A stretch of DNA of 64,000 nucleotides from a virus. This document shows, piece after piece, positions 30,639 to 63,999 of the stretch (positions within the stretch are counted from its first letter, which is position 1; every line of letters starts with the position of its first letter). Where the stretch lies: the IMG/VR virus record IMGVR_UViG_3300042520_001767, positions 64,001 through 128,000 of that record; one strand, written 5' to 3'. Under the pieces are notes generated by a model, which saw nothing but the letters and a program-made list of their open reading frames with translations, had not been told where the DNA came from and ran no database searches. The position numbers and the translations under genes are program-made.

Positions 30639-30665
30639 CGAAATATTAAAAAAAGAATTAAACTT

Positions 30666-33064: not shown

Positions 33065-33066
33065 CT

Positions 33067-34715: not shown

Positions 34716-34717
34716 TT

Positions 34718-36306: not shown

Positions 36307-36307
36307 T

Positions 36308-37111: not shown

Positions 37112-37112
37112 T

Positions 37113-37523: not shown

Positions 37524-37533
37524 CAAATACGAT

Positions 37534-38956: not shown

Positions 38957-38958
38957 TC

Positions 38959-39567: not shown

Positions 39568-40094
39568 TAAAAGCATTAGGGAGTGATATAATTATTGATG
39601 AAGATGTTGTTGCTAAACAAGATTTAGTGATAAACGGTTCGCACGTTTCAATAGATAAAGGGTTTTATTGTACAACAAACACCACTATAGGTAATTATGT
39701 ACATATCGGACCTTATGTGACTATAATAGGTGGAAAAGAAGGAATGTTCACAGCAAAAGGTTTTAACAACATAATGGCTGGGGCAAGAATTGTATGTGGT
39801 TCAGATAGATTTGATGATAGCGGTTTATTTGGTGCTATGATTCCAAAAGAATTAAAAGGAACTCAAATAATCGAACCAGTAATCATGGAAGAATTTTCAA
39901 ACATTGGTACAAACGCCATTGTCTTACCAGGTTCAATACTTAGACGAGGTGTTTTACTAACTGCTGGAAGTTTATTAATAGGTGATACAGAAGAATGGGG
40001 GGTTTATAAAGGAAACCCAGCGGTGTTAATTAAAAAAATTGACCCAACAAAAATAATTGAAAATGCTAAAAAATTAGGTTATATTGAGAGCTAA
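39564..40094 (+). CDS. Hexapeptide-repeat (LbH) acetyltransferase
   Basis: TTIGNYVHIGPYVTI, SNIGTNAIVLPG, YKGNPA. Confidence 0.88.
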   Translation: MIKALGSDIIIDEDVVAKQDLVINGSHVSIDKGFYCTTNTTIGNYVHIGPYVTIIGGKEGMFTAKGFNNIMAGARIVCGSDRFDDSGLFGAMIPKELKGTQIIEPVIMEEFSNIGTNAIVLPGSILRRGVLLTAGSLLIGDTEEWGVYKGNPAVLIKKIDPTKIIENAKKLGYIES

Positions 40095-40884: not shown

Positions 40885-40897
40885 TTAAATAAAAAAT

Positions 40898-41500
40898 ATG
40901 TCATTTGAAATTATTACTGAATTTGAACAATCAATAGCTAAATTTTTTGGTTCACCTTATGCTGTAGCTGTAGATAGTTGTACACACGGTATTGAATTAT
41001 GTTTAAGATATACCAAAGAAACAAAAATAAGTGTTCCCAAAAGAACATATTTGTCGGTACCATTTTTAGCTGAAAAAATGAATTTAGAAAGAGAATGGAG
41101 AGATGAAGAATGGGAAGATTATTATACGCTTAACTATGGTGATAAAAAAATAATCGATGCGGCTGTTCTTTGGAAAAAAGACAGCTATATACCAAACACT
41201 TTCATGTGTGTTAGTTTTCAATATCAAAAACACCTTTCATTAGGTAGGGGTGGTATTATTTTACTAGATAATGAAGAAGACTTTATAACACTAAAAAAAA
41301 TGTCTTATGATGGTAGATTACCAAATATACCTTGGAGGGAACAAGATATTGACACTGTTGGATTTCATTATTATATGACACCAGAAACAGCTAAATTAGG
41401 TTTAGAAAAATTACCTGAAGCTATAAAAACTGAGCCAAAGAAATGGGTTGTTACCGATTGGCCAGATTTAACAAAAATTAAAATATTTAGTGAAAAATAA
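40898..41500 (+). CDS. Compact DegT/DnrJ PLP-dependent sugar aminotransferase
   Basis: AVAVDSCTHG, SFQYQKHLSLGRGG with the catalytic Lys, GFHYYM. Only 200 aa. Confidence 0.8.
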   Translation: MSFEIITEFEQSIAKFFGSPYAVAVDSCTHGIELCLRYTKETKISVPKRTYLSVPFLAEKMNLEREWRDEEWEDYYTLNYGDKKIIDAAVLWKKDSYIPNTFMCVSFQYQKHLSLGRGGIILLDNEEDFITLKKMSYDGRLPNIPWREQDIDTVGFHYYMTPETAKLGLEKLPEAIKTEPKKWVVTDWPDLTKIKIFSEK

Positions 41501-41504
41501 TTAT

Positions 41505-42515
41505 ATGGAAAATAAAACAAAAAAAGGTATTTATGAAGGGCGTAAGGCTTTTCTTACAGGAATTAATGGACAGGACGGGAGTTACTTAGCAGAATATTTA
41601 TTAGACTTAGGTTACGAAGTACATGGAATTATAAGAAGAAACTCCAGCGTTGAATCGCAACAAAGTAGATTTTCAGATGAGGTAAGAAGCAAAGTTAATA
41701 TTCACTATGGTGATTTATTAGACCAAGGTGGTTTAGAAAAATTGTTAGACCAAATTCAACCAGATGAGATTTATAATCTTGCCGCTCAAAGCCACGTAAG
41801 GATTAGTTTTGATATACCACAATTTACAGTACAAACAAACGCTATTGGAATTCTAAATATTCTTGAAGCCTATAGACGTTCATGTCCAACAGCTAAGTTT
41901 TATCAAGCGTCTTCATCTGAAATGTTTGGTAACTCAGTAGATTCTGATGGTTTCCAAAGAGAAACAACACCAATGACTCCAGTAAGCCCTTACGGTTGTT
42001 CTAAAGTATTTGGTTATAATATTGTTAGGAACTATAGAAATGCTTATAAACTTCACGCATGTAATGGAATTTTATTCAATCACGAATCACCTAGACGAGC
42101 ATCTAACTTTGTAACTAATAAAGTTGTAAAAACAGCTGTTGAAATAAAATTAGGTTTAACTGATAAATTAGTTTTAGGTAATATGGATTCTTATAGAGAT
42201 TGGGGTCATTCAAAAGATTACGTAAAAGCTATGCACTTGATTCTAAATCATGACACACCAGATGATTTTGTTGTATCAACAATGACAACACACTCAGTTA
42301 GAGAAATGGTTGAATATGTGTTTAAAAAATTAGATTTAGATTACTCCAAGTATGTTTCACAAGATGCTAAATTTCTTAGAGCTGAAGAATTAAAATATTT
42401 AAAAGGAGATTCAACTAAAATTAGAGAAAAACTAGGTTGGAAACCAGAATATACTTTCGAAACGTTAATGGATGATATGATTGACGGTTGGTTAGATAAA
42501 TTAACTAATAAATAA
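41505..42515 (+). CDS. gmd: GDP-mannose 4,6-dehydratase
   Basis: TGINGQDGSYL, NLAAQSHV, YQASSSE, SPYGCSK, FNHESPRR, RDWGH. Confidence 0.97.
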   Translation: MENKTKKGIYEGRKAFLTGINGQDGSYLAEYLLDLGYEVHGIIRRNSSVESQQSRFSDEVRSKVNIHYGDLLDQGGLEKLLDQIQPDEIYNLAAQSHVRISFDIPQFTVQTNAIGILNILEAYRRSCPTAKFYQASSSEMFGNSVDSDGFQRETTPMTPVSPYGCSKVFGYNIVRNYRNAYKLHACNGILFNHESPRRASNFVTNKVVKTAVEIKLGLTDKLVLGNMDSYRDWGHSKDYVKAMHLILNHDTPDDFVVSTMTTHSVREMVEYVFKKLDLDYSKYVSQDAKFLRAEELKYLKGDSTKIREKLGWKPEYTFETLMDDMIDGWLDKLTNK

Positions 42516-42518
42516 ACT

Positions 42519-43382
42519 ATGATAAAAAAACCCTTACCATCAGCGACTACTAGAAAACCTAGAGTTAAAAAAGCTACAACTAATGTAGCTGAAGAAAAAA
42601 ATCCTTCATCAGATTTATTATCCCAAATAAGGATAGATATTAAACATAAAAATGAAACACAAAAAAAATTAACACAAGCAATCAAACAAAATGATGTAAC
42701 TATTTGCACTGGTTCTGCTGGGACTGGTAAAACGTTATTAAGTGTTTCAGAAGCGTTATTATTATTGAAAAATAAAAGTGATGTTTACCATGAAATTAAA
42801 TTAGTTAAATCGATAACTGAATTAAAGGGTGAAAGTATAGGTACCTTACCTGGGGATGCTAACGAGAAAATGTTACATATAATGATGTCATATTTAGATG
42901 CTTTTTATAAACTTATAGGTGAAGAATTAACAACTAAATTAATTGAAGCTGGATATATTAAAATGGAAGTTTTTGCTGCAATTCGTGGTCGTTCATTTAG
43001 TAATTGTATTATATTAGTAGATGAATTCCAAAATATAACACACGATAACGCTAAAACACTTCTAACTAGATTTTCAGATAATACAAAATTAGTTATATTA
43101 GGTGATACAGGTCAAATAGATATTAGAAATAAAACAGAAAGCTCATTAGATAGCTTAGCTAATAATGTGAATGCAAATCCAATTGATGGAGTATCAGTTA
43201 TCAATTTTACAGATAAAGATATTGTAAGGCATCGTTTAACCAGCTATTTTATCGGTCTTTTTTCCGACAATCAAACAAAAACAACTAAACCTAAATTGTT
43301 ACTCGAAAATAAAATCGAAGAAAAACCAAAAGATAAAGAAGAAACAAATTTATTAGTCAAAAGGTTTTCTTTTTTCAGATAA
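42519..43382 (+). CDS. phoH: PhoH-family ATPase
   Basis: GSAGTGKT, IRGRSF, DEFQN, GDTGQID, DIVRH. Confidence 0.93.
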   Translation: MIKKPLPSATTRKPRVKKATTNVAEEKNPSSDLLSQIRIDIKHKNETQKKLTQAIKQNDVTICTGSAGTGKTLLSVSEALLLLKNKSDVYHEIKLVKSITELKGESIGTLPGDANEKMLHIMMSYLDAFYKLIGEELTTKLIEAGYIKMEVFAAIRGRSFSNCIILVDEFQNITHDNAKTLLTRFSDNTKLVILGDTGQIDIRNKTESSLDSLANNVNANPIDGVSVINFTDKDIVRHRLTSYFIGLFSDNQTKTTKPKLLLENKIEEKPKDKEETNLLVKRFSFFR

Positions 43383-43397
43383 AAATAGTAATTAATA

Positions 43398-43425
43398 AAA
43401 AACCGTTGATATATCAACGGTTTTT
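43398..43425. terminator. Palindromic intrinsic terminator
   Basis: AAAAACCGTTGATATATCAACGGTTTTT, a 28-bp perfect palindrome followed by a T-rich tract. Confidence 0.8.
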
Positions 43426-43446
43426 CTTTTTTATTATAGTTTATTA

Positions 43447-43476
43447 TTTACAAATTAATTATATTAATTATAATTG
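43447..43476 (+). promoter_or_regulatory. Host-sigma-type promoter
   Basis: TTTACA-N16-TATAATTG upstream of 43517. Confidence 0.5.
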
Positions 43477-43516
43477 TTTATAATAAAATATAACATAAAA
43501 ATATAATAATTAAATT

Positions 43517-44125
43517 ATGGCTAAAATTTCGATTTCCTTAAATGAAGTACTTAGGGATTATGTTAGTCAACTAGCTTACACTTACGACAAATACATGGGT
43601 GAAAGTGGTGTAAAAGAACATGATATAACAAACTTTAATCTAATTGAATTTTTTAAATTTGATGATATCAACAAATTTAATACGTTTCTTTATTTAGAAG
43701 CACCACTAGAGATATTTGGTCATGCTGACCAAATGTCAGACGGTTTAATGAATCATTTTAATACTTTTTTAATGGATATTAAAGATGATGAAGAACACGA
43801 AATTGAACTTGTTAGTCGTGAAGTTGATAAAAGTATACCATCAACGTATTTCTTTTTATCTAAGACTGGTTGTAGAGCAGATAAAGTAAGGTTCGTTAAG
43901 GATTATGTTAGTGAATGGGATGGTGCTGATATACTAATTACAGCTAACCCACAAGCACTAGAATCAAAACCATCTGGTAAAATTAGTGTTAAAGTTAAAA
44001 CAACTTACAATGAAAACACACCTTCAGATTATGAAATTGATTCAATATTAGATTTCATTAACGATGAAGAACTTAGAAATAAAATATTAAATACAAAAAT
44101 AACAACTTACGAAGAAATTGACTAA
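43517..44125 (+). CDS. 5'(3')-nucleotidase/HAD-fold protein with degenerate motif I
   Basis: ISISLNEVLRDY in place of I.IDxDGVL.D; later ELVSRE and DILITANP fit HAD motifs II and IV loosely. Confidence 0.5.
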   Translation: MAKISISLNEVLRDYVSQLAYTYDKYMGESGVKEHDITNFNLIEFFKFDDINKFNTFLYLEAPLEIFGHADQMSDGLMNHFNTFLMDIKDDEEHEIELVSREVDKSIPSTYFFLSKTGCRADKVRFVKDYVSEWDGADILITANPQALESKPSGKISVKVKTTYNENTPSDYEIDSILDFINDEELRNKILNTKITTYEEID

Positions 44126-44126
44126 T

Positions 44127-44486
44127 ATGATTGAATTCGGTGGAAGCATCTATTATATTGACTTAGATGCATTAGAAAAAACAATTTTACCAGTTGGAGT
44201 CAAACCAACAGATAAAATAATTGAACGTGAAGAAAAAATTCATGTTGACTCAGATAATAATGTTGTACATACAGATATTACTGAAGTTAGTAAAGAAAGA
44301 GGTAGAGAAATCGATGGAGCCAAATACGAAATGGTTAGACTAATGTTGGAAATATTAATGGATGATATGGAAGAAGCTGATGACGCAACTTTAGGTGCTG
44401 AGAGAGCTTTAGAAAAAACATCATTATCATATAAAATAGCATTCAATACATTATATCATTATGGTATATTAAAAGAACAAGAATAA
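44127..44486 (+). CDS. Hypothetical protein
   Basis: Acidic ORF; ATG at 44127 follows the upstream stop. Confidence 0.65.
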   Translation: MIEFGGSIYYIDLDALEKTILPVGVKPTDKIIEREEKIHVDSDNNVVHTDITEVSKERGREIDGAKYEMVRLMLEILMDDMEEADDATLGAERALEKTSLSYKIAFNTLYHYGILKEQE

Positions 44487-44510
44487 TATAAAAAATAAAA
44501 TAAAATAAAA

Positions 44511-45665
44511 ATGGAAGAACAAAAAAATCAAGTGGTAGAACAAATCAAACAAGTAAAAGAGGTTCTAGCTAAATTAGAATCTAAAGATTTTAACTTATAC
44601 TTTTTTACCTTAGACACTAAAGGTAACCCAACAGCTGGTATTGCTAATATTTACGAACATGTTAAAATTTTAAATGATTTAGGATATAGAGCGAGTATAT
44701 TACATGAAAAAAATGATTACAAATTAAGAGGTGACCAAGAAGGTAATGGTATCGCTGATTGGTTAGGTGAGGAATACGCTTTATTACCACATTCATCAAT
44801 TGAAGGGCAGCAATTAAATGTTAGTCCAGCTGATTTTATTATCATACCAGAAATATTCGCTAATATAATGGACCAAGTAAAAGGTTTCCCATGTAAAAAA
44901 GTTGTTTTCTCCCAAAGTTATGATTATTTACTAGAATTATTACCAATTGGTAAAAGATGGAATGTTGATTACGGTTTTACCGATGTAATCACGACAACTG
45001 AGAGACAATCAAATTACTTAAAGACAATGTTCCCATCAATCAAAACACATGTTATACCAGTATCTATACCATCTTATTTTAAAGATAGTGATAAACCAAA
45101 AATTCCAGTTGTAAGTATTTTAACTAGAAATCAAGGGGATGCTGCTAAAATCGCTAAATCTTTTTATCTTCAATACCCAATTTATAAATGGATTACATTT
45201 AAAGAATTAAGAGGTTTATCTAGAGAAGAATTCGCTACAGAATTAGGTAAATCATGTTTAGCTGTTTGGGTTGATGAACAATCTGGTTTTGGTACTTTCC
45301 CATTAGAAGCTATTGAGTGTAATACACCAGTAATTGGTAAAATACCAAATATGATTCCAGAATGGATGGAAAATGTTGATGAAGAAGGTAATATTTCTAT
45401 TAAACAAAACGGTATTTGGACAAATACAACACTTAATATCCCAGAATTAATCGCAACTTATTTAAAAGTCTGGTTAGAGGATTCAATCCCATCTGATTTA
45501 ACTGAAAATATTAATGAAACAAAAGGTTCTTATACTTCAGAAAAACAAGTATCTATAGCTAGTAAAGTTTACACAACATTACATGAAAATAGAATCTCTG
45601 AATTAAAAATAACTTTAGAAACATTGGAGAATACTGAAAAAGAATTAACTACAACTAACGCTTAA
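44511..45665 (+). CDS. GT-B (GT4-like) glycosyltransferase
   Basis: GIANIYEHVKILN, IIIPE, FGTFPLEAIECNTPVIG. Confidence 0.75.
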   Translation: MEEQKNQVVEQIKQVKEVLAKLESKDFNLYFFTLDTKGNPTAGIANIYEHVKILNDLGYRASILHEKNDYKLRGDQEGNGIADWLGEEYALLPHSSIEGQQLNVSPADFIIIPEIFANIMDQVKGFPCKKVVFSQSYDYLLELLPIGKRWNVDYGFTDVITTTERQSNYLKTMFPSIKTHVIPVSIPSYFKDSDKPKIPVVSILTRNQGDAAKIAKSFYLQYPIYKWITFKELRGLSREEFATELGKSCLAVWVDEQSGFGTFPLEAIECNTPVIGKIPNMIPEWMENVDEEGNISIKQNGIWTNTTLNIPELIATYLKVWLEDSIPSDLTENINETKGSYTSEKQVSIASKVYTTLHENRISELKITLETLENTEKELTTTNA

Positions 45666-45679
45666 TAAAAACTATAAAT

Positions 45680-46477
45680 ATGAAAAATACAAATAATATT
45701 AGTGTTGTACTACCTGTGCACGAATTGAATGAAGAAACAAAAGTTTTATTTACAAACGCAGTACAAAGCGTTATAGACCAAACAATCAGACCAGACGAAT
45801 TAATTATTGTTGTTCCAAAAGGTAGCGATGTTGTTAAAACCGTTAAAAAAGTTGATTACGGTGATTATAAAAATTCAGTTAGAATTGTTGAAAATGATGG
45901 CGAAACTGATTTCGCATCACAAGTTAATTACGGGGTTTCAGTTTGTAAAACCGAATGGTTTTCAATCTTGGAATTGGATGATGAATACGCTAAAATTTGG
46001 TTCAAAAATGTTATTGAACATAGAGAAAAACACTCAAATGTTGATATCTTCATGCCAATTATCATTGATGTTGATAATGGTGGTCAATTTATTGGATTTA
46101 CAAATGAAGCAGTATGGGCTCAAAGTTTTTCAGATGAATTAGGTGTTTTAGACAATAATGCATTGTTAACATATCAAAACTTTAATATCGATGGAATGGT
46201 GATTAGAAAATCAGTTTATGATGATTTTGGTGGTTTTAAACCTAGTATCAAATTAACTTTTATCTATGAATTTTTACTACGTATGACTTTTAAAGATGCA
46301 AAGGTATTTGTTATTCCTAGATTTGGGTACAAACACTTAAACCAAAGGCCAGGTTCTCTATTCTCAACATATAAAGAAACCTTAGACCCAGTAGAAGCTA
46401 GATGGTGGTTATCAACAGCTAAAAAAGAATATTACTTCCCAGCTGATAGAAAAATAACATACGAAATTGAAAATTAA
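45680..46477 (+). CDS. GT2 glycosyltransferase
   Basis: ISVVLPVH, SVIDQTIRPDELIIV, SILELDD. Confidence 0.85.
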   Translation: MKNTNNISVVLPVHELNEETKVLFTNAVQSVIDQTIRPDELIIVVPKGSDVVKTVKKVDYGDYKNSVRIVENDGETDFASQVNYGVSVCKTEWFSILELDDEYAKIWFKNVIEHREKHSNVDIFMPIIIDVDNGGQFIGFTNEAVWAQSFSDELGVLDNNALLTYQNFNIDGMVIRKSVYDDFGGFKPSIKLTFIYEFLLRMTFKDAKVFVIPRFGYKHLNQRPGSLFSTYKETLDPVEARWWLSTAKKEYYFPADRKITYEIEN

Positions 46478-46480
46478 TGA

Positions 46481-47209
46481 ATGGTAACTAAACGAGGACG
46501 CAAGAGAAAAAATGATATGTATTTTGGTCCAGAAGAAGAAGAAGCCGTTATTAATTTTTTAGAATCAACAAACGAAATAGAAAGGAACCTCATTTTTAAC
46601 GAGTGGTTGAAAGAACCACTCGATAAAATGATTGAATCCATAATTAGAAGGTATAAACTGTACAGAAAAGGAGAAACTTTTGAAGAGTTGCATAGCGACA
46701 CCGTATCTTTTCTAATGACAAAAGTACATAAGTTTGAAAGTGGTAGAGGGAAAAAAGCTTATTCATATTTTGGGACTATAAGTAAAAATTATATTCTTGG
46801 TTTGTTAATCAAGGATGAAAAAAACATAAAACAAATGGCTTCATACGAAGAGATGTCTGAAACTATTGAAGAACGTGAAGATTTAACATATATTATTGAT
46901 GATGATAATTTTTTAATGGATGAATTTATCAAAAAATTATCTAATGGTATTAAAGAAGAATTAAACAATGAAACACTACCTATTAAAAAAAGGTTAAACG
47001 AAAATGAAAAAAAAGTTGGTCTAGCTTTAATTGAAATTTTAGAGAATTGGGAAACAGCTTTTGAATCTATGGATGGTGGTTCTAAATATAATAAAAATTC
47101 AGTGTTAGAGACGATGAGAAATTATACCAACCTATCAACAAAAGATATTAGATTAGCAATGAAAAGATATAAAGAACTTTATGAATTATTAAAACATCAT
47201 GGGTTGTAA
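46481..47209 (+). CDS. Phage sigma factor, T4 gp55-like
   Basis: KVHKFESGRGKKAYSYFGTISKN resembles sigma region 2 (KFDP..G....SYF..I..N). Confidence 0.7.
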   Translation: MVTKRGRKRKNDMYFGPEEEEAVINFLESTNEIERNLIFNEWLKEPLDKMIESIIRRYKLYRKGETFEELHSDTVSFLMTKVHKFESGRGKKAYSYFGTISKNYILGLLIKDEKNIKQMASYEEMSETIEEREDLTYIIDDDNFLMDEFIKKLSNGIKEELNNETLPIKKRLNENEKKVGLALIEILENWETAFESMDGGSKYNKNSVLETMRNYTNLSTKDIRLAMKRYKELYELLKHHGL

Positions 47210-50751: not shown

Positions 50752-50760
50752 ATATTTATA
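50752..50760 (+). promoter_or_regulatory. ATATTTATA putative late-promoter motif
   Basis: 15 nt upstream of the ATG at 50776. Confidence 0.55.
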
Positions 50761-52493: not shown

Positions 52494-53336
52494 ATGAAAA
52501 AACTTATAAAAAAATTACTTAGAGAAGGTTATAATCATGTTAGTTTAGATTACGTTAAAAATAAAAAACCTAAATTAGATAGATATAAAAATTTTAAACA
52601 AAAAAATATTGGTGATTTTGTTTTAATTTCCGACATGTATAGTGAAGATGAAATTAAACGCTTTGGTCTTTTAGGTCAAATTTTAGTTTTTGATAAAAAC
52701 GATAATACCGAAATAGGTAATTCTTCTTTTGGGTTTAATGAAGAAGGTATCTTAAAAGCTAGTATTGATGTAAGACCAGATTTTAGACGAAAAGGTGTAG
52801 GTACTCAAATGTATTTATATATTGAAGAATTAACTGGACTAAAAATAACACCTTCACCTAAACATTCATCTGATGCTGAAAAATTCTGGAATCAATCAAA
52901 TAGACCATTTGGTTTAGATGAAGCCATTTCAGACCCCACATTCAACGAAAACTTCAATAGATGGTTTGATGGTAGTAAAGTTGTAGATGAAGCTGGAAAA
53001 CCTCTTATATGTTATCATGGTAGTAGTAAAAACATAACAACATTCAATACTAAACGTTCAGCTCAAGGTGTATTTTGGTTTACAACAGATAAAAATAAAA
53101 TATTATCTGGTGAATCTGGAGCCGCAGCCACCAATAAAATAATACCTGTATTTATCTCAGCAAAAAAAATAGCTGGTTGGGATGAATATGAGAAATTAGG
53201 TCTCGGTCAAATAGAAGATATGGGTTATGACGCAATAAAATTAGATAATGATTATATTGTTTTTGACCCAAGAAAAATAAAGTCAATAAAAAATAAAGGT
53301 GATTGGGGTATAAATAATAAAAATATTTTTAAATAG
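52494..53336 (+). CDS. GNAT-like plus ADP-ribosyltransferase (ART-PolyVal-like) fusion with MKKLIKKLLRE leader
   Basis: IDVRPDFRRKGVGTQMY (GNAT motif A); WFDGSKVVDEAGKPLICYHGS..FWFTTD..YDAI..YIVFDP (ART of polyvalent proteins). Confidence 0.78.
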   Translation: MKKLIKKLLREGYNHVSLDYVKNKKPKLDRYKNFKQKNIGDFVLISDMYSEDEIKRFGLLGQILVFDKNDNTEIGNSSFGFNEEGILKASIDVRPDFRRKGVGTQMYLYIEELTGLKITPSPKHSSDAEKFWNQSNRPFGLDEAISDPTFNENFNRWFDGSKVVDEAGKPLICYHGSSKNITTFNTKRSAQGVFWFTTDKNKILSGESGAAATNKIIPVFISAKKIAGWDEYEKLGLGQIEDMGYDAIKLDNDYIVFDPRKIKSIKNKGDWGINNKNIFK

Positions 53337-53339
53337 ATT

Positions 53340-53678
53340 ATGAAAAGCTTTATAAAAAAATTACTTAGGGAGCAAATGATTGATGGACAAAACATGAATT
53401 CAGCTATGCAAACTATGTGTAATAAAATTAGTGTTAATTCTTATCAAGAAGTTTTAAATTATGTAGAAACAGCACTTAAAGACGTTAGTGAAGAAACTAG
53501 ACATAAAGTTATGCAAAAAATACATGTACCATTAGAAAATTTAAAGAACGAAGAAAATAAAATCACAGATGAAATTAAAACAACTCATATGTCTGGAGAT
53601 AGTATTCCAGATGAAGCCAACACGTATTGGCATCAGATTCAATCAACAATTTGTGAAATGGGTCCCGATTTTCAATAA
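53340..53678 (+). CDS. Small helical protein with MKSFIKKLLRE leader
   Basis: 112-aa ORF sharing the leader with both neighbours. Confidence 0.7.
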   Translation: MKSFIKKLLREQMIDGQNMNSAMQTMCNKISVNSYQEVLNYVETALKDVSEETRHKVMQKIHVPLENLKNEENKITDEIKTTHMSGDSIPDEANTYWHQIQSTICEMGPDFQ

Positions 53679-53775
53679 AAATTAAATATAGTTAAGTAAA
53701 TATATTTAATACATAATTACTAATCTCGTTTAACAAATTTCATCTAAGTAATTTTTTTATTCTATTTTTAATATT

Positions 53776-54786
53776 TTATATATCAAATAAAGTTGGGTGT
53801 AAATCAACTGAAACACCAGTTAACGCTCTAGGGTTTTTTAATGTTCCATCATCTATTAATTTAGGTAATGCTTTTCTAGTATCTTTAGATTGCAACCTAA
53901 TCGACACACTATCAATATTATTATTTTTTAATGTTTGAATTAAATTCCTTAAAAAACCACGTCTTTTTAAATTTTCATCGTAATTACCAATTGGTTGACT
54001 ATTCATTTGAGTTATTGAAGCAACTTTTTTATTATTAAGTATTTTAATATCACCAAATGCTCTACCACCGTAATTGTCGGTATATTCCCAACTATAATAT
54101 TTCTCTTCACCAATTTTTTCATCGGTGATATCATCTAATATATCTTTAACTTTTGGGTTAATAGTTAATTTATTTTCATTTATTATATTTTCATTTAATA
54201 AACTATATTTAATATAATTTTGTAGTTCTCTCCAATCTAAATCACTAATACCCTTATATCCTTTATCTTTAAATAATTTATTAAGTTCTTCTCTAGATAA
54301 ATCTTTAATGTTAGTAACATAATTATTCACAAAGTTATTGGATAAATCTTTAGTTATTTTAACAACTGGCATTATATTACAACCTAATTTCATAGCTGAT
54401 GATGCTCTATGTCTACCCTCTTGGTCAGATTTACCATCAACATAATAACCTATTGGTGCTTTACTACCATTCTTCATCATTAAACTATATTTTTCAGCTT
54501 TCTCATCACTATAAGCACCACCCAATACATCAGCATATGATAAACCAAAACCATTAGCTATCTTATAAAGATATTGTTTTGGTTTTAAATATTCAATTTC
54601 TTGTAACTCCCTTTTACTAATAATATAATAAAGTGGGTGTTCTAAACCACCATAATTTTCCAAACTTTTCATATCAAAATATCTACAACAATCACAATTT
54701 TGATTTGAATTAATTGAATTTAACATCACATCAATATCATGGATATTTAATTCTTCTCTTAATAATTTCTTAATTACCTTTTTCAT
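53776..54786 (-). CDS. ParB/sulfiredoxin-like domain plus GNAT-like domain with MKKVIKKLLRE leader
   Basis: APIGYYVDGKSDQEGRHRASSAMKLG..MPVV (ParB G.HR motif); C-terminal LKRRGFLRNLI, weakly GNAT-like. Confidence 0.62.
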   Translation of the reverse strand: MKKVIKKLLREELNIHDIDVMLNSINSNQNCDCCRYFDMKSLENYGGLEHPLYYIISKRELQEIEYLKPKQYLYKIANGFGLSYADVLGGAYSDEKAEKYSLMMKNGSKAPIGYYVDGKSDQEGRHRASSAMKLGCNIMPVVKITKDLSNNFVNNYVTNIKDLSREELNKLFKDKGYKGISDLDWRELQNYIKYSLLNENIINENKLTINPKVKDILDDITDEKIGEEKYYSWEYTDNYGGRAFGDIKILNNKKVASITQMNSQPIGNYDENLKRRGFLRNLIQTLKNNNIDSVSIRLQSKDTRKALPKLIDDGTLKNPRALTGVSVDLHPTLFDI

Positions 54787-54789
54787 ATC

Positions 54790-54798
54790 TATAAATAT
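54790..54798 (-). promoter_or_regulatory. ATATTTATA putative late-promoter motif
   Basis: TTGTAGATATTTATA 3 nt before the ATG at 54786. Confidence 0.5.
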
Positions 54799-54806: not shown

Positions 54807-55490
54807 CTATAAAAGTTTCGTACCCTTGCTTAAATTATCTGGTCCCCATAATGGTTGAAGATTGCTTAATTTCCAACAATCTTTAAATCCAATATCATCA
54901 GTACTCTCAAATTGAAAACTATTCATCGGTATCTTATGGTCAACATGCCATTCACCATAATTATCCCATGTCATTCCAACAGTAAATAACGCTTCCAAAT
55001 GTATCATCAGTTCTTCTATAGAATAACCTAATAAGATAAAAGTAGATGATTTTTTCTTAACGTTACGTTCTTTTAAACAAGTTGAAACTGATGTACGTGT
55101 CCTAGCGGTTAAACGATATTTTGGGTCTTCTCGTCTACGATTTCTTTCATAATCTCTAGCCCATTTTCTAACTTTATCTCTATTTTCATTACGCCATTCA
55201 GTATGTTTAGCTCTTAAAGTATCACGATTTGTAATTGACCAATCTTTATGGTATTCACTTAATTTTTCTTTATTTTTTTCAGCGTATTTTTTATCAGCAA
55301 CAGCTTTACCACCAATATTTCTTCTTCCAGATGGTCCAAATTCAACACCATTTTCTTTAAGTGTTCTAATAACAATTGTTTTATGTATTCCCATACGTTC
55401 ACTTATTGATGGTGAACCCATTAATTCTTCATTATATAACCTTAGACACTCTAAGGTTTGTTCCTGTGTTAATTCTATTTTCTTTGACAT
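54807..55490 (-). CDS. Free-standing HNH endonuclease
   Basis: N-terminal HTH-like segment; FTVGMTWDNYGEWHVDHKIP..LSNLQPLW..NLSKG. Confidence 0.82.
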   Translation of the reverse strand: MSKKIELTQEQTLECLRLYNEELMGSPSISERMGIHKTIVIRTLKENGVEFGPSGRRNIGGKAVADKKYAEKNKEKLSEYHKDWSITNRDTLRAKHTEWRNENRDKVRKWARDYERNRRREDPKYRLTARTRTSVSTCLKERNVKKKSSTFILLGYSIEELMIHLEALFTVGMTWDNYGEWHVDHKIPMNSFQFESTDDIGFKDCWKLSNLQPLWGPDNLSKGTKLL

Positions 55491-55610: not shown

Positions 55611-57476
55611 TTATCTTAATTCATTAATGTTGAAAGTTGGAACACCATCAACCATTACATGGCCGTAAAATCTGTTGTTGACAACCTTTTTAGCATATCT
55701 CGTCATAATCCCCTTCACTGGAGCGAAGTTAAATGGGTTATACATAGTTGGAGTTAATTGCAACGGTACGTATGGAGCATAGATGTAACCAGTATCAAGC
55801 AATGATTTACCTTTGTGACCGATGATTACAGAGAAAGCTGGAGCATAAGGGTCACGGTACACTTGGTAACGTCCGCTTAAAGAACCGATTCTTTCAATAC
55901 CCATGTTGTATTGGTCTTGCTCTGGGTTAGCGTCACTTACGTGGAAGTATTCTAAATCGTCAAAAATAGCAGAGATTTCAGAAGAAACTACGATAAAGTT
56001 AGCACCACCTCTAAGAGTAGATTTATGGATTTGAGCAGAAACTTGGTTTAATTTAGTAATTAAAGTTTGGTTCCATTCTTTTTGAGTATATGGGTTAGCA
56101 GATGTAGCAGCTTTTCTCCATCCATTATAATCCCATCTCAATTGCCAAGCAGCAGCTTTACGGATATCTCTAAGGATTTCACGGTCAATCTCAGCAGCAA
56201 CTTGTTCAGATAACATTGCAGTTAACTCAGCTTCAGCATCGATGTTGTGGAATGCACTAACGTCTTGTGCTAACTCTGGAGACCATGTAGCTCTTAATTT
56301 TCTTTCTTCAACAGATACAACAACTTCGTCTAATCTGAAAGATACTTCTCCCATTTCAGTTTCAAGTTCTAATGAAGCGTATTCAGCCCATGCAGAAGTA
56401 AAAGTGAAAGCAGATACAGTTGTAGCAGATGCACCAACATAACCATCATAAGTAGCAGTACCAGGAGTTACAACAGCACCAGCAGCAGTTGTTCCAACAG
56501 GGTGACGTAAATCTAACTCTACATAACAAGTACCAGTACCATCAGTTAAATTACTAGAACTAGACGTAACGATACCTTTACCGTATTGTTGAGTAACCAA
56601 ACGGAAAGGAACTTCTTTACCAGCAGCGATAACAGCATTTCCATCTCTATCCAAGATAGCATTAGTAGTTACAACACGTAATGAAGCTAAGAAAGATTCA
56701 GTATCTGTATTGTTACCATTAGCACCAGTCATTTTTTCTCTACCATTTCCAATAACGTTTTTAGAGAAACCAGTGATTCCTAAGATAATACCTCTTAATG
56801 AACCATCAGTTGCAGTTGGTCCAGCAGACATTGCTCCAGTAGCTACAGTATAAACACCATCATTACCTAAAGTAAATACAGCATTACCACCAACTTGGAT
56901 TGTAAGAGTACCTTTAGAGTTATCAAATAAACCATCATTGTAGAATGCATCATAAAGATTTTTACCTACGAATGGTGTTACAACACAACCACCAGAATTA
57001 ATACAAGATGGTAAAGCAGCTCCAACTGGAGTACCGTTGTTAAGACCACCTAAACCAGTGTGTGCAGAGAATTGTTGGTTTGTTGTTAAACTACCATCAT
57101 TCGCATATGGAGAACCAGCGTTTCCAGCAGCATCAACACGAGAAGATGTTTGTGGAACGAAGAAGAACAATTTACCGATTGGCATGTTCATAGCTTGTAC
57201 AGATACGATATCGTTAGCTAATAATTTAGAGAAAACTCTACGTACAATTGGAAAAACTACAGTTTCGAAAGAACCAGAGTTAGTTGCAGTAGTTGCTTCA
57301 GTCAATAAAGAAGACGCTTGGTTTTCATATAATTGAGCAATGTTTTCTTTTACGTGTCCTCTAAGACCGTCTAGGAATCCTAATGAATCCCATTTTGTTT
57401 GAGTTTCCAAACGAATAGCTTTCATGTGGTTTAAACCGATGTTACCTACTTGTCCAGATGTTAATAAATGTGACAT
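55611..57476 (-). CDS. gp23: T4 gp23-like major capsid protein
   Basis: FPIVRRVF, RKLRATWSPELAQD, AEIDREI, GYIYAPYVPL, MTRY; strongly biased codon usage. Confidence 0.96.
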   Translation of the reverse strand: MSHLLTSGQVGNIGLNHMKAIRLETQTKWDSLGFLDGLRGHVKENIAQLYENQASSLLTEATTATNSGSFETVVFPIVRRVFSKLLANDIVSVQAMNMPIGKLFFFVPQTSSRVDAAGNAGSPYANDGSLTTNQQFSAHTGLGGLNNGTPVGAALPSCINSGGCVVTPFVGKNLYDAFYNDGLFDNSKGTLTIQVGGNAVFTLGNDGVYTVATGAMSAGPTATDGSLRGIILGITGFSKNVIGNGREKMTGANGNNTDTESFLASLRVVTTNAILDRDGNAVIAAGKEVPFRLVTQQYGKGIVTSSSSNLTDGTGTCYVELDLRHPVGTTAAGAVVTPGTATYDGYVGASATTVSAFTFTSAWAEYASLELETEMGEVSFRLDEVVVSVEERKLRATWSPELAQDVSAFHNIDAEAELTAMLSEQVAAEIDREILRDIRKAAAWQLRWDYNGWRKAATSANPYTQKEWNQTLITKLNQVSAQIHKSTLRGGANFIVVSSEISAIFDDLEYFHVSDANPEQDQYNMGIERIGSLSGRYQVYRDPYAPAFSVIIGHKGKSLLDTGYIYAPYVPLQLTPTMYNPFNFAPVKGIMTRYAKKVVNNRFYGHVMVDGVPTFNINELR

Positions 57477-57521: not shown

Positions 57522-58769
57522 TTATCTTTTTTCAACTCTGCTAATCAAATCCATGATTCTTTTTGTTGATGGGTCAACATATGCTGTACTTTCATTTAAT
57601 TGTTTTGAAGTACTAGTAGATGCTTCTTTAATAATTTTACGTTCTACTGATTCGTTGATTGGTTTTCTTGTTTCCAATTCATTAACAATATTTTTGTAAA
57701 GTTTTTTAGATTCAACAAGATTGGAAACCTCATCAAATCTTTTAATGATATTTTGTTTTTCAGATTTTGTTGTTGAATGTTCTTGTAAGATTCTTACAAC
57801 ATATGTAAGATTACTATTAAAAACAACAGTTTCAACTAATTTAGTTCTAAATTCTCTAAGAGCAGTTCTAAACTCATCATTCTCAGATTTTAATTTTTTA
57901 GCTTCAGTTAGTAGAGTATTGTATTTTTTAGCTGTTTCAGAAACGATTTGTCTAGCTTTAATGGTTTCATCAAGTTTTTCACCATCAACACTTTTTTTAC
58001 CGAAACCTAAATGAGATGAACCAGAACGTCTTTGTCCTTGGTGACCAGCTTTACCATTTACATTTGCAATATTTTCTTCAATTTCTTCTTCTTCAGTTTC
58101 TTCCTCATCACCAAATTCAGAATCACCTTCTTCAGATTCTACAGCTTCTTCGTCACCGAACTCACTTTCTTCTTCTTCAGTTTCTTCATCATCATCACCC
58201 ATTTCAATGTCATACTCAACATCAGTAGATTCCTCCTCATCATCACCCATTTCAATAGGTTCTTCATCAAAGTTTTCTTCATCAGCCAAATCAGTATCAC
58301 CTTGTAGTGAATCTAGTTTTACAACATATTCACCTGGTTCTGTAATGTTTAAGCGAAGTTCATCACCAACAATTTCGATTTCATCTTCACCACTCATTTT
58401 TTTGTAAATTGCGATTACGTCTTCATCACTTGCTCCAGTCATATCAAGTTCTTCAGATGATTCCTCATCTTCCATTCCCATTGCATCCATAGCTGGTAAT
58501 TCCATTTCTGAACCTCCCATTTCTGAATCTACATCTTCCATACCACCTTCTGCGTCAAATTCGTTTTCGTCTTCCTCTCCAGCTTCACCAGCTAAAGGGT
58601 CAACATCTTCTTCTTCATAAGTCATTTCTTCCAAGGACTCTTTCACTACACTATCAATTTCTTCTTTAGCTACGCTACGAAGTATTTCTTTTGTGTTTGC
58701 ATTGAGAGCTGATTGAATGTTTTTAATATCCAATAAAGCTTCTTCAAGTATTGATTTTTTTTCTGCCAT
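57522..58769 (-). CDS. Prohead core/scaffold protein (gp22-like)
   Basis: Very acidic centre, coiled-coil C-terminus, many [ILV]-x-E sites; located between protease and capsid genes. Confidence 0.8.
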   Translation of the reverse strand: MAEKKSILEEALLDIKNIQSALNANTKEILRSVAKEEIDSVVKESLEEMTYEEEDVDPLAGEAGEEDENEFDAEGGMEDVDSEMGGSEMELPAMDAMGMEDEESSEELDMTGASDEDVIAIYKKMSGEDEIEIVGDELRLNITEPGEYVVKLDSLQGDTDLADEENFDEEPIEMGDDEEESTDVEYDIEMGDDDEETEEEESEFGDEEAVESEEGDSEFGDEEETEEEEIEENIANVNGKAGHQGQRRSGSSHLGFGKKSVDGEKLDETIKARQIVSETAKKYNTLLTEAKKLKSENDEFRTALREFRTKLVETVVFNSNLTYVVRILQEHSTTKSEKQNIIKRFDEVSNLVESKKLYKNIVNELETRKPINESVERKIIKEASTSTSKQLNESTAYVDPSTKRIMDLISRVEKR

Positions 58770-58889: not shown

Positions 58890-59606
58890 TTATTCGAATA
58901 AAAATTTATCTAAATCATTTAATAAATTTTCTTTTATTAATGGTTTTTTAGTTTCCACGTTTTCCACATAAGGTGTCATTTCTTCTCTGCTACGACCTAT
59001 CCAAGCATCTGGAGTAGATGGTGCTGTAACAACATCCCAACAAATTATTTCAAAATCTTCTTGAACAATTTGCTCACCATTCTTACCTTCTTTAAGTGAA
59101 CCTACACCTCTAGAAGAAACACCAATCTTAATTCTATTTCTTAATAAGTTCGCTACTTCATCACCTTTTGTTGATACGATACCATAATTTATAAACCCAG
59201 GTGTCATTAATATTTCCATTTTACCCATAAGCGTATGACCTTCCCACCACGTTTCAACAATGTTATGTGAAATCCTATCACCAGCTATAACGCTTGATTC
59301 TGGGTGGTCTAATTCACCTACAGCTCTACGTTCACGTATAGCTTCTTGATATAACCTATCTTGTGATTTAAGAATTGATTCTGGGTATATTCTACCATTA
59401 CGATTAAGAATACCGTATTTTTGTAGTACAACATAAACGATAAGTGGCTCAACGATGCTGATTCTACTACCGCTATCTATTTTTTTTATTTCATTTATGA
59501 AAGGTTGGTTCCTAGGTTCATCAGGCGAAATAAATCCAGCGTCATGTTCAATTAGAACTCCTGTACCGCTACAACCTCTTTTAATTACTTTTATATCTTT
59601 ATCCAT
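58890..59606 (-). CDS. gp21: T4 gp21-like prohead protease
   Basis: NRNGRIYP, GELDHP, GVSSRGVGSL, WDVVTAPSTPDA (His/Ser/Asp residues present). Confidence 0.95.
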   Translation of the reverse strand: MDKDIKVIKRGCSGTGVLIEHDAGFISPDEPRNQPFINEIKKIDSGSRISIVEPLIVYVVLQKYGILNRNGRIYPESILKSQDRLYQEAIRERRAVGELDHPESSVIAGDRISHNIVETWWEGHTLMGKMEILMTPGFINYGIVSTKGDEVANLLRNRIKIGVSSRGVGSLKEGKNGEQIVQEDFEIICWDVVTAPSTPDAWIGRSREEMTPYVENVETKKPLIKENLLNDLDKFLFE

Positions 59607-59621: not shown

Positions 59622-59630
59622 TATAAATAT
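59622..59630 (-). promoter_or_regulatory. ATATTTATA putative late-promoter motif
   Basis: 15 nt upstream of the protease ATG. Confidence 0.55.
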
Positions 59631-61020: not shown

Positions 61021-63999
61021 TTATTCATCCAACATTTTATCAATATCACCAATCATACCATCGATGTCTTTGTTTATTTTTAAATTTTTATTGTAAATTT
61101 TAATATTAGAAACCTTTTTAGTTTTGTCTGGTTTAATTGTTTCAACTAAAGCATCAACAAATCTATTTTTATACTTATTTGTTCTTTTATTTAAATCCCC
61201 AACCAATACTTCTTTTCTTTCAGTTAATAATTTTTCTACTTTTTTTAGAGACTCAGCAACTGTTTCAGGTTCTGCATCTATATCTAAACCACCTTCAGTA
61301 TCTATCGCACCTTCTTCTGGTACACCTTCTTCACCTTCAGCATCAGATTCATCACCGAAATCTAGGTCTTCACCACCCATTCCTCCACCTCCGAAACCTC
61401 CACCACTACCACCAGCACCAGAATCACCGCCTTCTTCACCTTCACCAGAACCACCACCATTTAACGCAACATCAAAGTCGCCATAAATTCTATCAACACT
61501 ATCAAACATGCCAGTATGTTTAATAACAGCAGCAGTATTCGCCAATTCAGCAGAAGCAGCTTTCTCCATACGTTGTTCTAGTAAATCTTGTTTTATTTCA
61601 TCATCAGACCAACCCATAATTTCTCTGTGTGCTCGTGTCCATGACATAACACCAAACCCAGTTCCAATATCAGACACAGCATCTTTAAGAAGACTAACTT
61701 TAAGTTGTAAATGTTCAACTTTTAACATTTCAGCTTGTGTTGATGGATTGTTAAGTGTAAGTGTGAAATTATCTAAATCATCCTCAAAACCTAAAAGATA
61801 TAAGTGTATGATAGCTATCTTGTTTAATTCTTGAAGAATTGATTGTTGAATTCTATTTATTGTTCTAGAAAAACGAATATCTTGAATAGCTAAATTTTTA
61901 CCATCACCAGTAGCATCATCAAAACCTAAAAACGGTTTAGGGACACGTAATGCTGTAAATAAATTACTTCTTAGGTATTCAATATCAGCAATTTGGTCTA
62001 AGTTTGATGCACCTGGCAAAGTATCTATTGGATTCGGTGCATTTTCATCCCTTACTGGTATAAAGAAATCTTGGTCATTTGCTAATTGATTATAACGTAA
62101 ATCAATTTGACCAGTTTGCGGGTCAACGATAGGCATACGTTTGAATCTATCAGCAATAGCGTTCACATATGGTTCAACATCAGCATCATCAATATTACCT
62201 ACAAATATTTTATATACACGTCTTTCTGGGGCTCTAGTTACACGATAAACAAGCATACTATCCTCTGATAGCAATAACTGTTTCCAAATACGTCTAGCTT
62301 TCTCTAAAACACTGGTTCCATATGGTAACCTTCTATCATCACCTAGTAATCTAAAGTGAGCAATTTGCCATGAGTTGAATTCAACATCACGACCTCTCCA
62401 GAAGAATTTAACTTTATCACCAGAAGAAACTTCTTCATCTGGTAATTCTCTACCAGAAATCATATCAAATAATCCAGATTCTCTTCTTTCCATTTCGTAG
62501 TTAGGCATCTGTTTAGAACCAATAACACCATTGGTTGCGTCTATATTTAAATAAATGAAATTATCACCGTATTTGCATGTGTTCCTAGTCCACATTGGTC
62601 CAGAAGTATGGAAATCTAATCTATTGAAAAATAAATCTTCTAATATTGTTTTAACACGTTTACTATCAGAATAGATATTAAGCATTTTACCTTGGTCATT
62701 TAGAGTTGTACAATTATGTGATATAATCATACCCGATTCACATTTTATAGCAAAATTAGAATCTACCGATGAATTTAATAAATCATAAACTTTGTTTTTA
62801 CCTAAATATTCTACACTAACAACTCTATGGTTCCCAATTGTAGAAACCATATCAGTCCAATTTTTATAACCTTTTTTAATTAAAAATGATGTTAACTTAA
62901 ATGAATCAATATTATATTTTTTACAATATATTTTGACTGAACGCACTGGGTTGGTTTGTGTTGATATGAATTCTTTTATTGTTTTAATGTTAAAACCATT
63001 ATTAAATATAAAATCCAAATCTTCAATTCTTGTTAAATTATATTTTTTACATAATAATTTATTGTAAGATATTACAGTACTTTTATTTAAATTAAATTTT
63101 AACATCGCTAATTTTCGTCTATTACCTTTTTTATTAATTAAATAAGTAATATATTCACTCTCATTAATATCGTTAATGTGTTTAGTTGTGTTATCGTAAT
63201 TAGGGTTAGTTTCTCCAAATCTACTAACACCGTACATTGGGTTATTTTCCCCAGCATTATTAAAAAATTCTTTTCTCTCTAATTCAGTTAAATTTTTTAA
63301 TTTATTGTTAAGACCATCTTGTAATTGTTTTATTTTTAAATTTTTATCACAATTGTCCCATGTTTTTTTACCATTTTCGCTAAAAATTTTTTTCATCTTA
63401 TTTGAAAATTCAATATTACCCCAACGTTCTTTATTTAAATCTGTGTGTAATTTTTGATGGTCATCCCAAAACATATATTCTAACTGTGAAGGGTCATTAT
63501 TTAATTTATTAAATGATTTATGGTGAACAACTATTTTTTCAGTTCTAGCTCTATCGTTTAATAATAAATTTTCTTTATTCTTTATTAATTCACTTTCAGC
63601 GACAATAACGTGAGTTAGTTTTGACCCACCATTAAAATTTGTTAAACTAACTTTCTCGTATCCTTTATAATCTAATCGTTTAGTTATAGATTTTAATGAA
63701 TCGCCATAAATTAAATCTTTGGTTTCTACCCATTTATTATCATAAGACAACCATTTATGATTATCAGTACAAACTATTTCGCTACCATCATCTAAAGTTA
63801 TTTTATATGTGTCTTTAACACCTTTTAAAATAACTTTATCAACCATAGATGGTTTTATTTTATCACCATTAATATCAACAGCATATACCCAAAAATTAGT
63901 TATGTTGTTTTCATACAATGATTCAATTGTATGTTCAGTACCATTTAAAAGGGGTATTATAGTTTCGCCACCCAAACATTCTTCCATCATCACGTCTAA
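61021..63999 (-). CDS. gp20: T4 gp20-like portal protein with intein; 5' end outside the window
   Basis: LDVMMEE^CTTLNDQG, KYGDNF, YGTSVLEKARRIWKQL, YRVTRAPERRVYKI, DFFIPVR, TLPGASNL, ALRVPK. The frame stays open to the window edge. Confidence 0.93.
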   Translation of the reverse strand, partial: LDVMMEECLGGETIIPLLNGTEHTIESLYENNITNFWVYAVDINGDKIKPSMVDKVILKGVKDTYKITLDDGSEIVCTDNHKWLSYDNKWVETKDLIYGDSLKSITKRLDYKGYEKVSLTNFNGGSKLTHVIVAESELIKNKENLLLNDRARTEKIVVHHKSFNKLNNDPSQLEYMFWDDHQKLHTDLNKERWGNIEFSNKMKKIFSENGKKTWDNCDKNLKIKQLQDGLNNKLKNLTELERKEFFNNAGENNPMYGVSRFGETNPNYDNTTKHINDINESEYITYLINKKGNRRKLAMLKFNLNKSTVISYNKLLCKKYNLTRIEDLDFIFNNGFNIKTIKEFISTQTNPVRSVKIYCKKYNIDSFKLTSFLIKKGYKNWTDMVSTIGNHRVVSVEYLGKNKVYDLLNSSVDSNFAIKCESGMIISHNCTTLNDQGKMLNIYSDSKRVKTILEDLFFNRLDFHTSGPMWTRNTCKYGDNFIYLNIDATNGVIGSKQMPNYEMERRESGLFDMISGRELPDEEVSSGDKVKFFWRGRDVEFNSWQIAHFRLLGDDRRLPYGTSVLEKARRIWKQLLLSEDSMLVYRVTRAPERRVYKIFVGNIDDADVEPYVNAIADRFKRMPIVDPQTGQIDLRYNQLANDQDFFIPVRDENAPNPIDTLPGASNLDQIADIEYLRSNLFTALRVPKPFLGFDDATGDGKNLAIQDIRFSRTINRIQQSILQELNKIAIIHLYLLGFEDDLDNFTLTLNNPSTQAEMLKVEHLQLKVSLLKDAVSDIGTGFGVMSWTRAHREIMGWSDDEIKQDLLEQRMEKAASAELANTAAVIKHTGMFDSVDRIYGDFDVALNGGGSGEGEEGGDSGAGGSGGGFGGGGMGGEDLDFGDESDAEGEEGVPEEGAIDTEGGLDIDAEPETVAESLKKVEKLLTERKEVLVGDLNKRTNKYKNRFVDALVETIKPDKTKKVSNIKIYNKNLKINKDIDGMIGDIDKMLDE
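62713..63978 (-). mobile_element. HNH-type intein (422 aa) in the portal
   Basis: Block A CLGGETIIPL, block B CTDNHKW, HNH VHHKSFNKLNNDPSQL, NUMOD3-like GENNPMYG, block F VYDL, block G IISHN|C. Confidence 0.92.

Follow-up and report, generated by a model that had tools for sequence, protein, structure and literature searches.

A shared N-terminal peptide on unrelated proteins beside the head genes of an uncultured T4-like phage: a putative counterpart of the T4 capsid-targeting sequence

The capsid-targeting sequence (CTS) of bacteriophage T4 has been known since the 1990s, mainly from a few small proteins of the T-even phages. It is present on IPI-III and on Alt, and is removed by the protease gp21 (Mullaney & Black, 1996, as summarized in the reviews PMC9026906, PMC5694885 and PMC3012670), with its residues 8 and 10 governing the processing; Asp at P1 prevents this processing yet leaves targeting intact (PMC9026906). 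Two further kinds of protein come close to those discussed here: the polyvalent proteins of phages and conjugative elements, in which ADP-ribosyltransferase (ART), GNAT and ParB domains occur and for which packaging in capsids has been predicted (Iyer, Burroughs, Anand, de Souza & Aravind, 2017; PMC5512222), and the ejection or inner-body proteins of the giant phages phiKZ, 201phi2-1 and SPN3US, which are cut by gp21-like proteases at x-x-Glu (PMC5694885, PMC10052503). We consider here a locus of an uncultured, low-GC (~29%) T4-like phage, contained in positions 64,001 to 128,000 of the IMG/VR virus record IMGVR_UViG_3300042520_001767 (the whole of this 64,000-nucleotide stretch is called the window), in which three adjacent genes for otherwise unrelated proteins all begin by encoding the 11-residue peptide M-K-x-x-I-K-K-L-L-R-E, referred to below as the leader. 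With a probability that we put at about 0.62, the leader is this clade's capsid-targeting propeptide and the counterpart of the T4 CTS, and cutting after Glu by the S77 protease encoded nearby would free both the leader and the modules of cargo polyproteins, which would be injected with the DNA.

The three proteins, named p280, p112 and p336 after their lengths (Table 1), are the only bearers of the leader in the window: a degenerate DNA pattern for the peptide had three matches in the 64 kb, all at these starts, compared with 0.00 in 100 shuffles, and a six-frame peptide scan of the window gave no further copy. Past the leader, no BLAST similarity was found among the three at E<=1e-4, and comparing the GNAT-like part of p280 with the C-terminal half of p336 gave no match (E=0.15). 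The original prediction, that three adjacent but otherwise unrelated open reading frames (ORFs) on both strands share this start, was thus confirmed by pattern count and by BLAST. Across codons 5-11 the three copies show five synonymous and no non-synonymous differences, and the DNA 5' of their ATGs is not conserved, so selection acts on the leader peptide, which is a basic amphipathic helix of net charge +4 (AlphaFold models show the helix). That these genes adjoin capsid and protease genes, as had also been claimed, is borne out by Pfam matches and gene position, the three ORFs being 0.8-3 kb from a T4-type block of capsid, scaffold and S77 protease genes and lying between the capsid gene and baseplate-side genes. 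As in T4, there are genes for a gp21-family protease, a gp23-family capsid protein and a scaffold core (the last recognized only from its position and composition).

IMG/VR holds hundreds of relatives of this phage. For comparison, 80 related loci (capsid identity 55-92%, 1.3 Mb in all) were fetched, and were searched in six frames with a loose leader motif and then with a position-specific profile. All 54 profile hits scoring at least 17 lay within 16 residues of a start codon or ORF start, a restriction to be judged against the mere 12.6% of ORF residues held by the first 25 positions. The tagged proteins form ~40 clusters without mutual BLAST similarity, and 54 of the 55 leader genes are within ~5 kb of the capsid gene, which accords well with the description of the leader as a portable tag; over the 80 loci, head and baseplate genes are the only constant neighbours. 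The leader has two forms, MK..IKKLLRE, which is short, and MKK.V.LTE.DLE.LVKKIIKE, which is long and belongs to more distant relatives. All 40 distinct variants end in [ILV]-[KRQ]-E, and the motif persists in relatives whose capsid proteins are only 55-60% identical. The content of the cargo island differs even between phages with 80-90% identical capsids, and neither p280 nor p336 has a homologue in the 80 loci. Few of the cargo proteins have a Pfam match (GNAT, SprT-like peptidase, GP88, ART), the SprT-like domain being present in only two of 60 leader-bearing relatives.

Other short N-terminal peptides were also encountered. In the two closest relatives, the gene directly after the capsid gene (L001:9886-10464 and L002:11937-12380, both on the + strand) starts with MKLSEIFNELLE followed by Ala, possibly a second type of leader in this clade. 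ParB-like and ART homologues in other phage types (P0043, P0069, L085, L086, L093 and L098, some of them on contigs of >400 kb) do not have the IKKLLRE tag; many of these untagged homologues start with a different short peptide, rich in F/L and in E, and several such peptides end in [FL]-x-E (MKILALKDFLNE, MAVKSFKEFLME, MKHLKRFNELFE), nearer in style to the T4 peptide MKTYQEFIAE. They may be clade-specific versions of the same address system.

The aliphatic-x-Glu ending of the leader recurs in the clade's own capsid propeptide and scaffold, in company with the gene for the gp21-family (S77) protease. Judged by alignment with mature T4 gp23*, the capsid protein of the window would have its mature N-terminus at about residues 45-61, and V-[KR]-E44, L-[YF]-E51 and [LIM]-x-E60 are kept in all 81 capsid proteins compared, a variable stretch following. 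In the scaffold, the sites LVE313, LVE353, INE373 and LNE393 are kept in 70-72 of 73 relatives. Such [ILVM]-x-E sites in capsid protein and scaffold would be the expected substrates of a gp21-type enzyme. The scaffold also has a leader-like segment, ERKIIKE380, followed by Ala and 35 residues from the C-terminus (residues 374-380, 57630-57650 on the - strand); it may act as a site for the protease, or else in self-interaction, with the cargo leader as an imitation of it. The more specific idea that the leader mimics and co-varies with this segment was rejected, as the segment is confined to close relatives and is absent from the subclade with leaders of the ...KIIKE form.

As far as sequence can tell, then, the leader system matches the T4 CTS system in its shared peptide, in the ending of that peptide and in the head proteins encoded with it, but not in relatedness to the T4 peptide, and for want of that relatedness the leader is better regarded as an analogue (or a very diverged form) of the CTS than as a homologue. 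In both cases an N-terminal peptide of 10-11 residues is the sole thing common to unrelated, fast-evolving proteins; it ends with an aliphatic residue at P3 and Glu at P1 (residues 8 and 10 in T4, L9 and E11 here); the phage encodes a gp23 capsid protein and a gp22-like scaffold along with its protease of the gp21 family; and an ADP-ribosyltransferase is among the cargo (Alt in T4, ART-PolyVal here). The differences are also considerable. The clade's cargo set is far larger and more varied than that of T4; it often consists of chains of enzyme modules joined at protease-type sites, which have not been described for T4; and its ART is a member of the polyvalent-protein family, outside the Alt/VIP2 clade. 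For the leader system, packaging and cleavage are inferences from sequence. A literature search found no paper on this leader or on protease-jointed cargo chains in T4-like phages.

Of the modules behind the leader, the ART-PolyVal part of p280 matches PF18760 (residues 165-225, 48.4 bits against a cut-off of 31.2, E=2.1e-12), a family found in homologues of the ART module too. The Pfam GNAT families fell below their cut-offs with p280 (20.4 against 27), but Foldseek, given the AlphaFold domain at residues 28-123, returned many GNATs with probability 1.00 and E values of 7e-4 to 1e-2. Model confidence (pLDDT) exceeds 90 for the ART module but is <50 over residues 124-144. A protein identical to p280 is present on nine contigs, and stand-alone versions of the GNAT and ART modules exist too.

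In the model of p336, residues 30-196 form a confident domain, followed by a weak segment (197-204) that contains LNE199 and INE204. Within the N-terminal module, residues 62-149 resemble sulfiredoxin (Srx) at Z 6.5, phage ParB/Sulfiredoxin models in BFVD were matched at E 3.5e-4 and 2.2e-3, and the string E-G-R-H-R-A at residues 123-128 is conserved; a search of PDB profiles gave only Noc (E ~0.5), none of the 33 members of this ParB-like family had a Pfam match, and the protein atlas offers as a lead one neighbouring cluster with ParB_N in 35%. A ParB identity thus finds no confirmation from sequence methods. The C-terminal module also lacks a Pfam match, and Foldseek against the PDB gave nothing for p336 at E<=0.001; VIA-align related residues 203-336 to many GNATs at Z 6-8, values to be read in the light of a model pLDDT of 50-75 and of the tool's own comment that Z <8 is common. 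One of the GNAT-fold matches of this module, to AcrVA5 (6iuf), an acetyltransferase with anti-CRISPR function, at Z 6.6 over 88 aligned residues, may serve as a lead, and only as a lead, towards a role in counter-defence.

The small module of p112 is the most widely shuffled of the clade. A weak match of p112 to PD-T4-6 (E=0.0016) was dismissed, as was a Pfam match to Usp38-like_N below its cut-off, and the protein atlas gave no lead for p112; PHROGs and PADLOC provided nothing useful for any of the three proteins, and Pfam detected no peptidase domain in them. The domain calls of the original prediction hold at different strengths, ART-PolyVal being firm and the GNAT, ParB/Srx and second GNAT-like folds being moderate candidates from fold comparison, and the residue numbers it had given for LDE143, LNE199 and INE204 are correct, all three being in low-confidence inter-domain segments of the AlphaFold models.

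This repertoire recalls the polyvalent proteins, with which the clade's cargo has in common the PF18760 ART, a GNAT beside that ART (p280), ParB-type domains (the ParB/Srx-like module of p336) and, in two relatives, SprT/MPTase-like peptidases. In both groups a single polypeptide carries several unrelated effector domains drawn from the described domain network, and both are predicted to be delivered with the DNA and to act early in infection. The clade's proteins differ in being small (two or three modules, 112-575 residues), in being confined to the head-gene island of one T4-like clade, and in having a dedicated N-terminal leader and an [ILV]-x-E at every junction but no built-in peptidase. 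The leader and the junction motif would imply processing by the capsid maturation protease rather than by a peptidase of the protein itself, or no processing.

Whatever weight the internal sites have comes from comparison with relatives, in which the GNAT, ART-PolyVal, ParB/Srx-like, p112-like and second GNAT-like modules occur alone or in many combinations and orders. Among these shuffled homologues, the capsid and protease genes are within reach only on L081, which encodes a protein 97% identical to p336. The linker positions first picked out in p280 and p336 coincide exactly with the points at which stand-alone modules begin after a leader of their own, or end. (In the following examples a stroke marks the junction.) The stand-alone ART P0054 reads ...HLLRE/AILEPNFNDNF where p280 has ...FGLDE/AISDPTFNENF, and in P0056 the GNAT-like module of p280 is followed by a p112-like module (...NIQE/QMIDG), which in turn precedes an ART in P0055 (...GLRE/A) and P0057 (...GLTE/A). 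About 40 stand-alone ParB-like homologues (194-202 residues) end at the residue matching 196-197 of p336, and the C-terminal module of p336 is found behind other partners in P0049 (...AVNE/G) and P0051 (...SIHE/T). In other proteins a large domain and then a whole internal leader precede the ParB-like module: KLLIKKLIKE/E in P0019, NIKRILRE/N in P0022 and KKTIKKLLKE/S in L082.

Counts point in the same direction. In proteins of the leader clade, an [ILVM]-x-E was present within 22 residues upstream of the start of the internal module in 11 of 11 cases (~34% expected, from a background of 0.0185 per position), as against three of 12 for homologues of these modules in other types of phage, which lack the leader. 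In fused proteins that contain a p112-like module, [ILV]-x-E stands directly before its opening Q[MLIV]IDGQ in all 35 cases, behind eight unrelated upstream families. At these junctions the P1 Glu is invariant and P3 aliphatic, whereas P2 is taken by N, K, Q, S, I, T or D and varies freely even inside a single upstream family. At the other end of the module, G-L-x-E was found in six of six proteins that continue into a further module, compared with none of the 29 intact ones that have the p112-like module at their C-terminus; these 29 end in G-(P/S)-x-F-(Q/E) or similar, and then stop. G-L-x-E is therefore a feature of junctions, and not of the fold.

Some large ORFs have a complete internal leader as well as an N-terminal one. 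In more distant relatives the long type occurs whole inside large ORFs of L078 (7109-8428, +, at about residue 308) and L066 (starting near 14570, +, at about residue 145), and a 697-residue ORF of L082 has a second leader at about residue 500 (segment ~5719-6297). These may be either fresh gene fusions or true polyproteins.

The preferred reading, in which the leader is a capsid-targeting propeptide, can be set out as a series of steps. The basic amphipathic leader would attach each new cargo protein to the scaffold core, which is very acidic, as this core assembles, and the shell would close around the core with its docked cargo. The S77 prohead protease would then cut after the closing [ILV]-[KR]-Glu, removing the leaders, and would also cut exposed junctions at LDE143 in p280 and at LNE199 and/or INE204 in p336, so that one gene might give rise to two free enzymes (GNAT and ART-PolyVal from p280; the ParB/Srx-like protein and the second GNAT-fold protein from p336). 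Retained in the head, these would enter the host with the DNA, presumably to act on targets there. Cargo modules are exchanged and fused in the fast-turnover island between capsid and baseplate genes. A more general proposition can be advanced only tentatively, at slightly less than even odds: that the head-maturation protease doubles as a polyprotein processor, with any module behind a leader or an [ILV]-x-Glu joint being loaded and released, and that the DNA encoding the leader serves as a recombination joint for the swapping, fusion and splitting of modules.

There is a partial model for such processing in the giant phages, where a diverged gp21-type protease likewise cuts after Glu in a short motif, several motifs being possible per substrate, and where the conserved propeptides at the N-termini of paralogous head proteins are presumed to direct these to the prohead. 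Those propeptides are, however, mostly of >100 residues, the reported cuts do not separate functional modules, and there is no counterpart of a short portable tag on dozens of unrelated families.

A number of points weigh against the reading of the leader as a capsid-targeting propeptide with cleavable joints. It has no similarity to MKTYQEFIAE beyond the initial M-K and the aliphatic-x-E end, and it is basic where the T4 CTS is acidic, so its docking partner may differ from that in T4. The scaffold has no Pfam or PHROG family match, and for this reason its role is only inferred; its ERKIIKE380 segment is kept in close relatives (as IIKE, LIKE or IVKE) but not in distant ones. The closest cultured phages have only ~37-42% capsid identity to the window's Gp23. 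The sequence ATATTTATA, a putative promoter element discussed below, was rejected as a specific mark of leader genes (found at 10 of 55 leader genes and at 177 of 1288 ORFs generally). Internal L-x-E sites, taken by themselves, are not significant, as each protein has four or five and a 21-residue linker would hold one by chance with a frequency of ~30-40%. As many of the junction examples go back to common ancestors, independent events are fewer than the counts suggest, and the motifs could in part be inherited remnants of former leaders. Finally, the prohead-protease cuts mapped in SPN3US, which is the best studied of the related systems, all remove N-terminal propeptides, save for self-cleavage of the protease (PMC10052503), which leaves cutting between functional modules without direct experimental precedent.

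These last points, on shared ancestry and on SPN3US, are also arguments for the strongest rival, which accepts the leader as a capsid tag removed by the protease but holds the internal [ILV]-x-E motifs to be mere leftovers from the leaders of fused genes, the chains being injected whole. Some junctions (P0019, P0022, L082) are plainly whole former leaders, the six G(D/N)GL-x-E linkers that follow p112-like modules resemble one inherited cassette, and packaging without processing is known for polyvalent proteins such as the virion RNA polymerase of N4 (PMC5512222). We nevertheless consider it unlikely, although to be taken seriously, because what has been kept at the junctions is just the aliphatic P3 and the P1 Glu, the basic IKK part having decayed and P2 varying freely, and because of the absence of the motif from all 29 intact proteins that end with the p112-like module. 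The sites are moreover in linkers that the models show as exposed and disordered, and in a prohead filled with protease such junctions would be hard to spare from cutting.

The constant N-terminus might instead have nothing to do with capsids, and might be recognized by some other enzyme, bind membranes as an amphipathic helix, or act in translation initiation as an A-rich element spread by recombination. The peptide is indeed a basic amphipathic helix, and its coding DNA is A-rich and nearly identical between copies. We think this improbable, given that the changes within the constrained codons are synonymous and the upstream DNA is unconserved, that no radical-SAM or other maturase family is among the 25 of 35 Pfam families listed for ORFs of the window, that only head and baseplate genes are constant neighbours over 80 loci, and that the motif, the conserved end of which matches the capsid and scaffold sites, survives down to 55-60% capsid identity. 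It is very improbable that the leader proteins have a structural or assembly function in the head core, as gp67 and gp68 of T4 do, and are digested and lost in maturation instead of being delivered as effectors: many cargo proteins are small and without a family match, and in more distant relatives the head-gene block includes some leader genes, 1.4-3.7 kb upstream of the capsid gene and roughly where T4 keeps its core-protein genes, but the enzyme domains of the window's cargo (ART-PolyVal, two GNAT folds, ParB/Srx) have no plausible role in assembly and belong to families linked to host modification, and a cargo set that is hypervariable between close relatives, as p280 and p336 themselves illustrate, fits poorly with essential core parts.

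Table 1. Coordinates of the leader genes, their predicted cleavage sites and the neighbouring head genes (positions are those of the window)
Feature	Position	Strand	Details
p280, cargo polyprotein, 280 aa	52494-53336	+	Starts MKKLIKKLLRE; leader 1-11, GNAT-like 12-123, disordered linker 124-143 ending LDE143, ART-PolyVal 144-280
p280 leader, residues 1-11	52494-52526	+	Predicted cut after Glu11, codon 52524-52526
p280 junction L141-D142-E143	52914-52922	+	Predicted protease site; closes disordered linker
p112, 112 aa	53340-53678	+	Starts MKSFIKKLLRE
p112 leader	53340-53372	+	Followed by module opening QMIDGQNMN
p336, cargo polyprotein, 336 aa	53776-54786	-	Starts MKKVIKKLLRE; leader 1-11, ParB/Srx-like ~12-196, linker 197-204, GNAT-fold 205-336
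p336 GNAT-fold module, residues 205-336	53779-54174	-	
p336 junction INE204	54175-54183	-	Predicted site in linker 197-204
p336 junction LNE199	54190-54198	-	Predicted site in linker 197-204
p336 leader, residues 1-11	54754-54786	-	MKKVIKKLLRE
ATATTTATA, candidate late-promoter motif	54790-54798	-	4 nt upstream of p336 start codon
Major capsid protein, gp23 family	55611-57476	-	Pfam PF07068, 244.6 bits, 2.8e-72
Capsid propeptide-like N-terminus, ~60 residues	57297-57476	-	Sites VKE44, LYE51, LTE60
Scaffold, gp22-like by position and composition	57522-58769	-	Residues 50-235 are 46% Asp/Glu
Prohead core serine protease, Peptidase_S77, T4 gp21 family	58890-59606	-	PF03420, 89.1 bits against cut-off 27, 3.5e-25

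The question of when the leader genes are expressed can be approached through the motif ATATTTATA, which contains TATTTATA, the reverse complement of the T4 late promoter TATAAATA, and is a candidate late promoter of the clade. There are 15 copies in the window against 7.8 expected, ten of them 12-25 nt before the starts of structural genes (beginning at 3974, 9134, 13890, 18687, 23286, 23309, 50752, 54790, 59622 and 60991); one precedes the protease operon (59622-59630), and another is at 50752-50760. The gene for p336 has the motif in common with nine other structural-gene starts, and those for p280 and p112 follow baseplate-side genes on the same strand, which may be taken as a weak indication that leader genes are expressed late, with the head genes.

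We draw attention to some further features of the surroundings. Between the capsid gene and the cargo island is a gene (54807-55490, -) for a 227-residue relative of HNH/endonuclease VII (phrog_1035, 3.4e-12), found in only some of the relatives (L006, L008, L009), which may be a mobile homing endonuclease that aids turnover of the island. Beyond the protease gene, a T4-type portal ORF (61021-63990, -) reaches the window's edge, and the ORF set of the window includes matches to Portal_T4 and Intein_splicing. Portal ORFs in relatives (L005, L009 and L010 among those compared) have either 683-691 or 1043-1493 residues, and the protease ORF of L005 has 625 residues compared with 241 elsewhere; from these lengths and the Intein_splicing match, it seems that head-gene inteins vary from phage to phage. 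On the far side, at ~30400-46500 (+) and upstream of a sigma-70-like gene (46481-47209) and the structural genes, is a run of glycosyltransferase genes (GT2, GT4, GT11, GT25) with genes for a GDP-mannose dehydratase, an epimerase and a DegT aminotransferase. Signal peptides of FSQ and YTQ type are encoded by neighbouring genes, and on this reading the host would probably be a member of the Bacteroidota with low GC.

If the leader is what we suppose, the logic of the CTS is at work, through another tag, in an uncultured lineage that is distant from T4 and abounds in metagenomes, and there the tag sits on recognizable host-modifying enzymes and is accompanied by a strict junction rule implying protease-released polyproteins. 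This would link two fields that have been separate, T4 head assembly and the computationally defined polyvalent proteins. A portable loading tag with release sites could also serve for packaging foreign proteins in capsids, as the T4 CTS has done. For the phages themselves, it would become possible to predict by a simple sequence rule what an uncultured phage injects, the set of injected effectors being readable from sequence by a two-part code of address tag and joint.

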